Source: Defluviitaleaceae bacterium
Lineage (GTDB): Bacteria; Bacillota; Clostridia; Lachnospirales; WRAX01
Direction: 5' to 3'
Assembly: GCA_009784575.1 (NCBI GenBank)
Contig: WRBK01000002.1
Span: 28,484 to 92,483, forward strand
Length of the DNA stretch: 64,000 nt
The position numbers were made by a program, and so were the translations under genes. This document shows positions 47,284 to 47,575 of the stretch, one piece after another. Under the pieces are notes generated by a model. It was not told where the DNA came from, ran no database searches, and was given only the letters and a program-made list of their open reading frames with translations. Each line of letters starts with the position of its first letter. Within the stretch, counting starts at the first letter, position 1.

Positions 47284-47312
47284 TTGAATATTGCCAAGTA
47301 TTGTGATAGAAT
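47284..47312 (+). promoter_or_regulatory. Promoter TTGAAT-17-TGaTAGAAT of the candidate antisense RNA (copy A)
   Basis: Read in sequence. Points toward the minus-strand peptide gene. Confidence 0.5.
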
Positions 47313-47318
47313 AAACAA

Positions 47319-47409
47319 AAAGAGACAATCGCAAAGCGGTTGGCATTAGGTGAATTAAGCTAAATTAGATTTAACCGCTCACTTTAGCCAGGGGCGGTTA
47401 TTTCTTTTC
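47319..47409 (+). ncRNA. Candidate ~90-nt antisense RNA (type I antitoxin-like), copy A
   Basis: Bounded by its promoter and a terminator (AACCGCTC-N11-GGGCGGTT then ATTTCTTTTC). 5' hairpin CAATCGC-AAA-GCGGTTG. Ends are predicted, not measured. Confidence 0.45.
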
Positions 47410-47475
47410 AGAAAGAATGTCAATGAGAAATTTGATTAGCATAAGCAAAATCATTGCTATCTCATATGTAGACAT
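47398..47475 (-). CDS. 25-aa hydrophobic peptide MSTYEIAMILLMLIKFLIDILSEKK (type I toxin / holin-like-toxin candidate), copy A
   Basis: ATG 47473-47475 preceded by SD AGGGGGTG (47481-47488). Single TM with a KK tail. Core is conserved in copy B. Below the ORF-track cutoff. Confidence 0.55.
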   Translation of the reverse strand: MSTYEIAMILLMLIKFLIDILSEKK

Positions 47476-47546
47476 GGCTTCACCCCCTTTCTTGCTAGGA
47501 GGATTTCTGCCAACCGCCTTGCTTCTATTGATTGTCTCAGAACATA

Positions 47547-47575
47547 ATTATACACCAACACTAATATTTCGGCAA
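47547..47575 (-). promoter_or_regulatory. Promoter TTGCCG-17-TGTATAAT of the peptide mRNA (copy A)
   Basis: Plus strand reads ATTATA 47547-47552 and CGGCAA 47570-47575. Extended -10. Confidence 0.55.

Follow-up and report, generated by a model that had tools for sequence, protein, structure and literature searches.

The window analysed here, a 64,000-nucleotide (nt) stretch of the Defluviitaleaceae bacterium contig WRBK01000002.1, carries a short locus at positions 47284-47575, directly downstream of the histidine ammonia-lyase gene hutH, in which a predicted mRNA for a small hydrophobic peptide faces a predicted antisense RNA. On comparative grounds, we consider it quite probable that this locus is a chromosomal toxin-antitoxin module, type I in kind, that follows the TxpA/BsrG (Hol-Tox) plan on a compact scale. 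It would be a new, compact and divergent member of that family, one that the current annotation misses, and it belongs to a subfamily set apart by the absence of a dedicated terminator and by a peptide that is 10 residues shorter. An earlier note, made by reading the sequence alone, had proposed a type I architecture for the locus, and the elements it listed, namely both promoters, the 5' box, the Shine-Dalgarno (SD) sequence with its anti-SD partner, the 25-codon open reading frame (ORF), the stop-codon hairpin and the 3' box, are all present where it had placed them (Table 1).

In the predicted layout, the antisense RNA is the full complement of the 3' untranslated region (3' UTR) of the mRNA; its overlap with the ORF is 13 nt long, takes in the stop codon and reaches the last four codons, and the U-tract of its terminator is the complement of the C-terminal lysine codons. 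The 5' and 3' boxes each occur exactly twice in the window, as against 0 of 100 shuffles. The predicted mRNA folds with a minimum free energy (MFE) of -75.5 kcal/mol, compared to -48.7 +/- 4.5 kcal/mol in 200 shuffles (z = -5.9), and the antisense RNA with -27.6 kcal/mol (z = -3.8), its 5' hairpin CAAUCGC-AAA-GCGGUUG having an energy of -7.9 kcal/mol. Based on the box counts and these z-scores, the pattern is not a product of chance. Both ends of the mRNA are linked by a helix of 9 + 15 bp (24 bp), termed P1, which is found in both the MFE and the centroid structures: the first 31 nt pair with the last 24 nt preceding the U-tract, with a duplex energy of -38.6 kcal/mol, and the helix ends exactly at the U-tract. 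The SD sequence is unpaired with a probability of 0.01. The sequestration of the SD and the 5'-3' fold-back, which had been anticipated from the letters alone, are thus both part of the MFE structure.

Beyond the window, at least 11 more loci in related metagenomes are laid out in this way. Scanning metagenomes with the 3' box, followed by a search with a DNA profile, recovered nine full modules and several partial ones; across the nine, conservation covers both promoters, the ORF, the sequestered SD, the fold-back of 5' on 3' end and the antisense terminator. Two further loci (L048 and L050) were reached independently through the peptide, by means of a mixed-profile protein search that returned unannotated peptides of 34-35 residues whose loci were then fetched, and they show the same module elements. 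This conservation across the nine full modules and the two peptide-derived loci supports the type I architecture suggested earlier. The antisense promoter is kept in 11 distinct copies, with TTGCAT, TTGCAA or TTGAAT as the -35 box, TATAAT, TACAAT or TAGAAT as the -10 box, a spacer of 17 +/- 1 nt with diverged sequence, and 7-9 nt separating it from GAGACAAUCGC. The mRNA promoter is likewise found in 8/9 distinct copies, at a constant distance from the 5' box and with diverged spacers. With boxes conserved while the spacers diverge, both appear to behave as real promoters.

The genomic distribution of the modules is scattered. A scan of genomes with a gapped pattern of the two boxes gave 26 matches, 25 of them due to chance and a single real one; this lies in a species-representative genome, a metagenome-assembled genome of the Clostridiales (L004), where the module encodes the peptide MSTYELIMLISLIILMMDIFSKRK in a different neighbourhood. 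L042 and L037, which are reverse complements of each other, hold tandem arrays with a 356-nt period, and a divergent module at L038:4177-4411 was not selected by the pattern. Scans of viral contigs with the 3' box and with the back-translated N-terminus yielded chance matches only, and blastn against plasmids and phages gave no full-length match, the best being one of 34 nt (E ~0.9), which pointed to the 'holin-like toxin' genes of Enterococcus. Exact-protein lookups of HutH and of L7/L12 returned the same strain only; this strain is present in IMG 3300010369, derived from the gut segment designated P1 of the higher termite Labiotermes labralis (PMC7800795). As a separate observation, modules of a sister subfamily, encoding the peptide MSYEAITLIFVAMTFVITLIKLMIYILDVFSKRK, stand in tandem at L048:2300-2850 (Ga0131853_10004932), set amid many small ORFs without a Pfam match in what could be a prophage-like region.

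The predicted RNA structure is itself conserved. P1 and a paired SD occur together in the MFE structures of eight of the nine modules, and the SD is largely or fully paired in all nine, with loops of differing lengths; the central SD/anti-SD pair switches from A:U to G:C or G:U among the modules. In the structure derived with RNAalifold from an alignment of eight sequences, 95.4% of the cells are paired, as opposed to 35-51% with slid partners, and the covariation score was matched by 1 of 500 shuffles. At the inner end of P1, in positions that fall outside the 19-mer used to select the sequences, there are two-sided changes: one pair reads A:U in three sequences but U:A in another three, and a second changes from C:G to U:A. 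A further helix of 5 bp pairs the start codon with codons 19-20 (alignment columns 68-72 and 152-156); all five of its pairs are formed in 100% of the cells, two of them with two-sided changes, yielding GUGUC/GACAC in L042c and L040 and AUGUU/AACAU in L035. Since the change of the start codon from ATG to GTG is mirrored by that of GACAU to GACAC, which converts an isoleucine of the peptide to threonine, the RNA structure constrains the protein sequence. The stem of the stop-codon hairpin is kept in all copies, with compensatory variants AUAGCCG/CGGCUAU in L050 and AUAACCCGC/GCGGGUUAU in L048, and a terminator scan calls its inner part in L042, L035 and L043.

As this alignment is small and its sequences are related, the relatives found through the peptide furnish the stronger test of covariation. 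Their P1 arms have different sequences, namely CACAAG/CUUGUG and GGCGGUAGGG/CCUUACCGCC in L048, and GGGCAUAA/UUAUGCCC and GGCGACAAGGCUUAC/GUAAGCCUUGCCGCC in L050. Both have a sequestered SD, a strong dedicated terminator and, immediately behind the latter, an opposing promoter with 11/12 consensus matches, and their folds reach z-scores of -10.8 (L048) and -8.4 (L050).

The small ORF, too, is conserved and evolves as a coding sequence: its frame is open in 7/7 intact homologues, with both other frames closed, the length differences are multiples of three, and substitutions at codon positions 3, 1 and 2 number 104, 79 and 40, respectively. The window peptide of 25 residues is hydrophobic (grand average of hydropathy, GRAVY, 1.04) and ends in SEKK; across the copies GRAVY ranges from 1.0 to 1.6, and all are strongly hydrophobic with a K/R-rich end. 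The peptides fall into length classes of 24-25 and 35 residues, the short forms resulting from two distinct deletions, each in frame, that removed 10-11 codons of the hydrophobic segment.

The earlier note had also seen a resemblance to the Hol-Tox peptides of PF16935, whose members NCBI calls 'type I toxin-antitoxin system toxin PepG1'; the resemblance is genuine though indirect, as it runs through the relatives of the window peptide. Against the PF16935 profile of 34 positions (gathering threshold 23.3 bits), a Streptococcus member (P0133) scores 34.0 bits and the family relatives score 24.5 (P0131, from L050), 21.8 (P0122, from L048), 17.2 (L042c) and 13.3 bits (P0119), P0131 alone among them passing the threshold. 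In a single BLASTP comparison, the family peptide L038b is 50% identical to P0133 over 30 residues (E = 4e-8), the two sharing the run NFVIALVKLIL. Profile-profile comparison of the family with Enterococcus members by hhalign gave a probability of 74%, and in a shuffle control five of seven family members were significantly similar to the Enterococcus Hol_Tox proteins. At the DNA level, the family profile matches a 'putative holin-like toxin' locus of E. faecium in the correct orientation (E = 5e-6); the match rests on two islands, one spanning the SD, the start codon and the S-x-Y-E codons and the other the lysine codons, the stop codon and the hairpin. The link of the window peptide to Hol_Tox would be transitive, via 35-residue paralogues with the same RNA boxes.

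Several known systems share parts of this design. In txpA/RatA of the Bacillus subtilis skin element (TxpA having ~59 residues) and in EF3263 of Enterococcus faecalis, as predicted for the window module, a convergent antisense RNA lies over the 3' UTR. Overexpressed EF3263 is toxic, and an antisense RNA of ~110 nt lies at its 3' UTR; the 'holin-like toxin' annotations have been equated with the TxpA family (Fozo 2010, PMC2887945). The txpA/RatA duplex is cleaved by RNase III, and very few Clostridia are reported to carry genes like txpA, C. bolteae being named as the exception (PMC6563280). The Hol_Tox proteins of Enterococcus and Streptococcus (TxpA/SprG family) and our family are alike in the N-terminal M-S-x-[YF]-E, a single hydrophobic helix and a K-rich end, although the 34-position profile of the former contrasts with a 25-residue window peptide that has no Pfam match. 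The Enterococcus locus further embeds its stop codon in a AAAUAACCG...CGGUUAU hairpin, and its predicted mRNA has a P1 helix (z = -8.1) with an opposing promoter behind it.

A close parallel in architecture is bsrG/SR4 of the B. subtilis SPbeta prophage, which shares with the predicted window module a small hydrophobic peptide with a lysine-rich C-terminus, a structured mRNA with a 5'-3' P1 helix and an SD held in a helix, and an antisense RNA that runs convergently and overlaps the mRNA in its 3' portion. Structure probing of bsrG mRNA showed P1 to pair nt 1-35 with nt 232-262 and the SD to lie in a short helix (PMC3834814), which bears out the likeness to txpA/RatA and bsrG/SR4 drawn earlier; SR4 overlaps the bsrG 3' end, promotes decay by RNase III and tightens the SD helix (PMC3834814; PMC8309996). 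SD/anti-SD pairing, a 5'-3' interaction and a 3'-side antisense RNA are the diagnostic features listed for Gram-positive families in T1TAdb (PMC8594479). There are also differences: bsrG has a terminator stem-loop (SL4) after P1 where the window module has a U-tract only, SR4 is 183 nt long versus ~90 nt for the antisense RNA predicted here, and BsrG has 38 residues versus 25, the likeness to BsrG being one of architecture and not of direct sequence comparison.

The comparison with hok, which had also been invoked for the fold-back, holds in part. The full-length hok mRNA is kept translationally inert by 5'-3' fold-back, its activation requires 3' processing, and Sok pairs near the 5' part of the mRNA at the translation start of mok. 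The term 'hok-like' therefore fits the fold-back alone, since in the window module the antisense RNA is placed over the 3' UTR, unlike in hok/sok; moreover, hok/sok of plasmid R1, which belongs to a Gram-negative family (PMC8594479), has no sequence relation to the window module. No overlapping leader ORF of the mok kind is found at copy 1 in the ORF list. The 5'-3' fold-back is itself not new, being already part of the TxpA/BsrG design, as seen in P1 of bsrG and in T1TAdb.

Together, these comparisons suggest a mechanism. A strong promoter of the sigma-70 type would produce an mRNA of ~222 nt for the 25-residue hydrophobic peptide with its Lys-Lys tail, and this mRNA would be closed in three ways: by P1, by the SD/anti-SD helix and by the start-codon helix with codons 19-20. 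The convergent promoter would yield an antisense RNA of ~90 nt that starts opposite the 3' arm of P1 and ends at the stop-codon hairpin. By analogy to txpA/RatA and bsrG/SR4, it would pair with the whole 3' UTR, for which P1 would have to open as well, and RNase III would cut the duplex, keeping the toxin mRNA low; peptide escaping this repression would be expected to insert in the membrane and halt growth. Because the 3' arm of P1 is continued directly by the U-tract, with the antisense RNA beginning opposite this arm, both RNAs would start nearly alike: the antisense 5' end resembles the 5' arm of the mRNA and pairs with the 3' arm at -45.9 kcal/mol, compared to -38.6 kcal/mol for P1. When folds were constrained to mimic the antisense-bound state, the mean accessibility of the ribosome-binding site (RBS) dropped in six of eight modules, though not in the window copy or L004; in six of the eight modelled modules, again excluding the window copy, the freed 5' arm lengthens the SD helix. 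These models weakly suggest translational repression through antisense-induced refolding.

Termination of the peptide mRNA had been ascribed to the hairpin at 47324-47341, which now looks doubtful; we rejected this local 3' hairpin as the main terminator on account of its weakness on the mRNA strand (-3.2 kcal/mol versus -7.9 kcal/mol on the antisense strand), and it has a C.A mismatch and lies 4 nt from the U-tract. No dedicated terminator stem-loop follows P1 in the window module, where UUUUU alone comes after the helix. In the E. faecium locus, L048 and L050, a separate terminator of 9-11 bp sits between P1 and the antisense promoter, whereas the window subfamily lacks it. In this subfamily, either P1 would itself serve as the terminator stem or termination would be leaky.

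A number of points weigh against the type I assignment and should be set beside the evidence for it. The transcripts of the module are predicted from sequence, and its toxicity and the decay by RNase III are predicted by analogy; the 3' end of the mRNA is uncertain. The window peptide has no match to Pfam, PF16935 included, or to NCBIfam at E <= 10, and when it was scored against a hidden Markov model of the Enterococcus Hol_Tox proteins, 59 of 500 shuffles (12%) did as well. The 25-residue form, in which ~16 residues are hydrophobic, may not be long enough for a membrane span, and the short forms could be attenuated, given that they arose by two different deletions. Several of the conserved pairs are uninformative, as the members selected by the 3' box form a small sample of close relatives. 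Finally, in the constrained folds the RBS accessibility of the window copy is not lowered by the bound antisense RNA, going from 0.24 to 0.28 in silico.

The window contains a second, diverged copy of the module upstream of hutH and on the same strand (~49132-49557, minus strand), which the earlier note had overlooked. The similarity between the two copies spans from one -35 box to the other; hence, what is repeated is the module with its two promoters and not the pair of inverted boxes. Several changes set copy 2 apart: 17 nt are inserted and the position shifts by 1 nt at the start codon, the U-tract is shortened to UUUAAUC, and P1 carries a mismatch and forms just partly in the MFE structure. 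Its ORF retains the peptide core but runs to 77 codons because a 117-nt insertion displaces the stop codon; this insertion ends in a GGGC-AGAA-GCCC hairpin followed by UUUU, and it has no match among the sequences compared or in Rfam. The 77-residue product has no Pfam match and a database search with it returns itself alone. A consensus scan of the 70-nt spacer from copy 2 to hutH found no sigma-70-like promoter, and Rfam scans of positions 46000-51000 and of copy 2 at E <= 10 returned nothing relevant to the modules. There is a gene call for the copy 2 ORF in the public assembly and none at copy 1.

Table 1. Coordinates of the two modules and of hutH in the window
Feature	Coordinates	Strand	Basis or remark
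Copy 1 mRNA promoter, TTGCCG-17-TATAAT, TG before -10 box	47547..47575	-	consensus scan, 10/12 matches
Copy 1 peptide mRNA (predicted, 222 nt), GAGACAAUC through U-tract	47317..47538	-	ends inferred from promoter and U-tract
Copy 1 5' box, GAGACAAUCAAUAGAAGCAAGGCGGUUGG	starts 47538	-	
Copy 1 P1 5' arm, GAGACAAUCAAUAGAAGCAAGGCGGUUGGCA	47508..47538	-	pairs with 47322-47345 in MFE and centroid
Copy 1 anti-SD CCUCCU (47497-47502) paired with SD AGGGGG (47483-47488)	47483..47502	-	MFE
Copy 1 25-codon ORF, MSTYEIAMILLMLIKFLIDILSEKK and stop	47398..47475	-	ORF list; coding pattern in homologues
Copy 1 start-codon helix, AUGUC (47471-47475) / GACAU (47417-47421)	47417..47475	-	RNAalifold consensus
Copy 1 stop-codon hairpin (47373-47399), then AUUUCUUUUC; predicted antisense intrinsic terminator	47373..47410	+	-13.7 kcal/mol
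Copy 1 P1 3' arm, UGCCAACCGCUUUGCGAUUGUCUC, then UUUUU (47317-47321)	47322..47345	-	complementary to 5' box
Copy 1 antisense promoter, TTGAAT-17-TAGAAT, TG-extended	47284..47312	+	consensus scan
Copy 1 predicted antisense RNA, ~90 nt	47321..47410	+	ends inferred
hutH, histidine ammonia-lyase, 505 aa	47583..49100	-	PF00221; same strand as both flanking modules
Copy 2 antisense promoter, TTGCAT-17-TATAAT	49133..49161	+	9 nt before GAGACAAUCGC, as in copy 1
Copy 2 diverged module, same 5' and 3' boxes	49168..49521	-	alignment with copy 1; repeats
Copy 2 77-codon ORF, GTG start, MVQAPTWSTYEITMILLLLVKFLVYIVILVEK...	49226..49459	-	gene called in public assembly
Copy 2 117-nt insertion within ORF	49246..49362	-	predicted structured, -33.9 kcal/mol
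Copy 2 mRNA promoter, TTGTCA-17-TATAAT	49529..49557	-	11/12 matches, stronger than copy 1

The position of copy 2 is not peculiar to the window. A module precedes hutH by 65-90 nt, in the same orientation, at copy 2 and, in related species, at L035 (474-2287), L042/L037 (L042:1-2475) and L043 (583-2379), and L040:2-2731 has at least four tandem modules between hutH and a divergently oriented gene that resembles hutU, an identity that is unconfirmed. The gene upstream of the module varies with the locus (rplL, CapA-like or hutU-like) while the order from module to hutH is kept. A simple scan of the spacers between module and hutH in the window, L035, L042 and L043 found no sigma-70-like promoter, and P1 is followed by 3-4 U residues in the hutH-adjacent modules compared to 5-7 in the modules that are convergent with their neighbour. 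In a separate setting, at L004:2404-3063, the module is followed after ~45 nt, on its own strand, by an ORF of 135 residues for a putative hotdog-fold enzyme of lysine fermentation, with a thiolase-like gene nearby.

These arrangements raise the possibility that the module is mainly a promoter-plus-attenuator cassette for hutH, with read-through past a weak stop formed by P1 and the U-tract, tuning of this read-through by the antisense RNA or the antisense promoter, and a secondary or vestigial peptide. Besides the recurrent placement ahead of hutH with varying upstream genes, the spacers without a promoter in the scan and the fewer U residues beside hutH, this is favoured by a module preceding another catabolic-looking gene in L004, by the lack in this subfamily of the dedicated terminator that L048, L050 and the Enterococcus locus have, and by a copy 2 that combines a damaged ORF and a shortened U-tract with the strongest promoter (11/12). 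However, copy 1, both modules of L038 and that of L045 are convergent with the next gene and cannot be leaders, so that a leader role is not general; as the HutH proteins of these loci are 85-88% identical, their linkage to the module may reflect synteny passed on by descent; coding constraint acts on the ORF of the hutH-adjacent modules too; and a simple scan is blind to promoters that are not of the sigma-70 type or depend on an activator. We therefore regard this explanation as unlikely for the module as a whole, though it could coexist with a toxin-antitoxin role, chiefly for copy 2.

A bolder version of the same idea, to which we assign a lower likelihood again, is that in this termite-gut lineage a toxin-antitoxin module forms the transcriptional front end of histidine catabolism, such that hutH would lack its own promoter and be expressed only through read-through from the module promoter. 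P1 and the U-tract would then make the whole toxin mRNA one large terminator or attenuator, and the antisense RNA, by competing with P1, would couple toxin silencing to the expression of hutH.

It is less likely than either of these that the peptide is an antisense-regulated small membrane protein without toxin function, e.g., a modulator of a membrane complex, of which the 25-residue form would be a detoxified derivative. This would agree with the two different deletions, which leave ~16 hydrophobic residues, and has precedents in family-like small proteins such as YhzE-2 that were reportedly non-toxic when overproduced, and in TxpA, which was non-toxic in E. coli (Fozo 2010, PMC2887945). On the other hand, P1, the SD helix, the start-codon helix and the antisense RNA are all maintained in the short-form modules. 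Furthermore, there are type I toxins, the Ibs peptides, of no more than 18-19 residues.

Finally, a non-coding repeated or mobile element of the kind of a miniature inverted-repeat transposable element, with the boxes as terminal inverted repeats, might be suggested by the inverted ends of the module and by copies that are dispersed, in tandem at the 356-nt period and flanking hutH, but we rejected it as highly improbable, for the homology continues ~45 nt past each box through both promoters, the ORF has a coding substitution pattern with in-frame indels, L048 and L050 keep the two arms paired as RNA helices although their sequences differ, which shows covariation, and the viral contigs, plasmids and phages gave no such element.

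If the module is indeed a type I system of the TxpA/BsrG design, it extends the TxpA/Hol-Tox toxin family, barely reported in Clostridia, to uncultured Clostridia of the termite gut. Standard annotation overlooks such loci, as is evident from the lack of a gene call at copy 1 and of a match in Pfam or NCBIfam. Conservation extends to the promoters, to P1, to the helices at the SD and the start codon and to the terminator hairpin around the stop codon, so that a search by RNA architecture is possible, with these elements as a template for finding unannotated members. The compact variant, in which a dedicated terminator is missing, the same box opens both RNAs and the peptide has 25 residues, would represent a minimal natural form of the bsrG/SR4 design, which has already been used in building RNA regulatory devices (PMC12721322). 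The recurrent position ahead of hutH also offers a lead on how such modules affect neighbouring genes.

Three minor observations concern the ribosomal protein genes beyond copy 2. The rplL terminator at ~49575-49610 gives rise to spurious weak matches to His_leader. A ribosomal protein L10 leader (RF00557) lies upstream of rplJ-rplL at 50683-50811 on the minus strand and scores 54.7 bits, above the gathering score. Between this leader and rplA lies a gene for a DUF1266 protein of 285 aa (50820-51677, minus strand), which breaks the usual rplKA-rplJL order.

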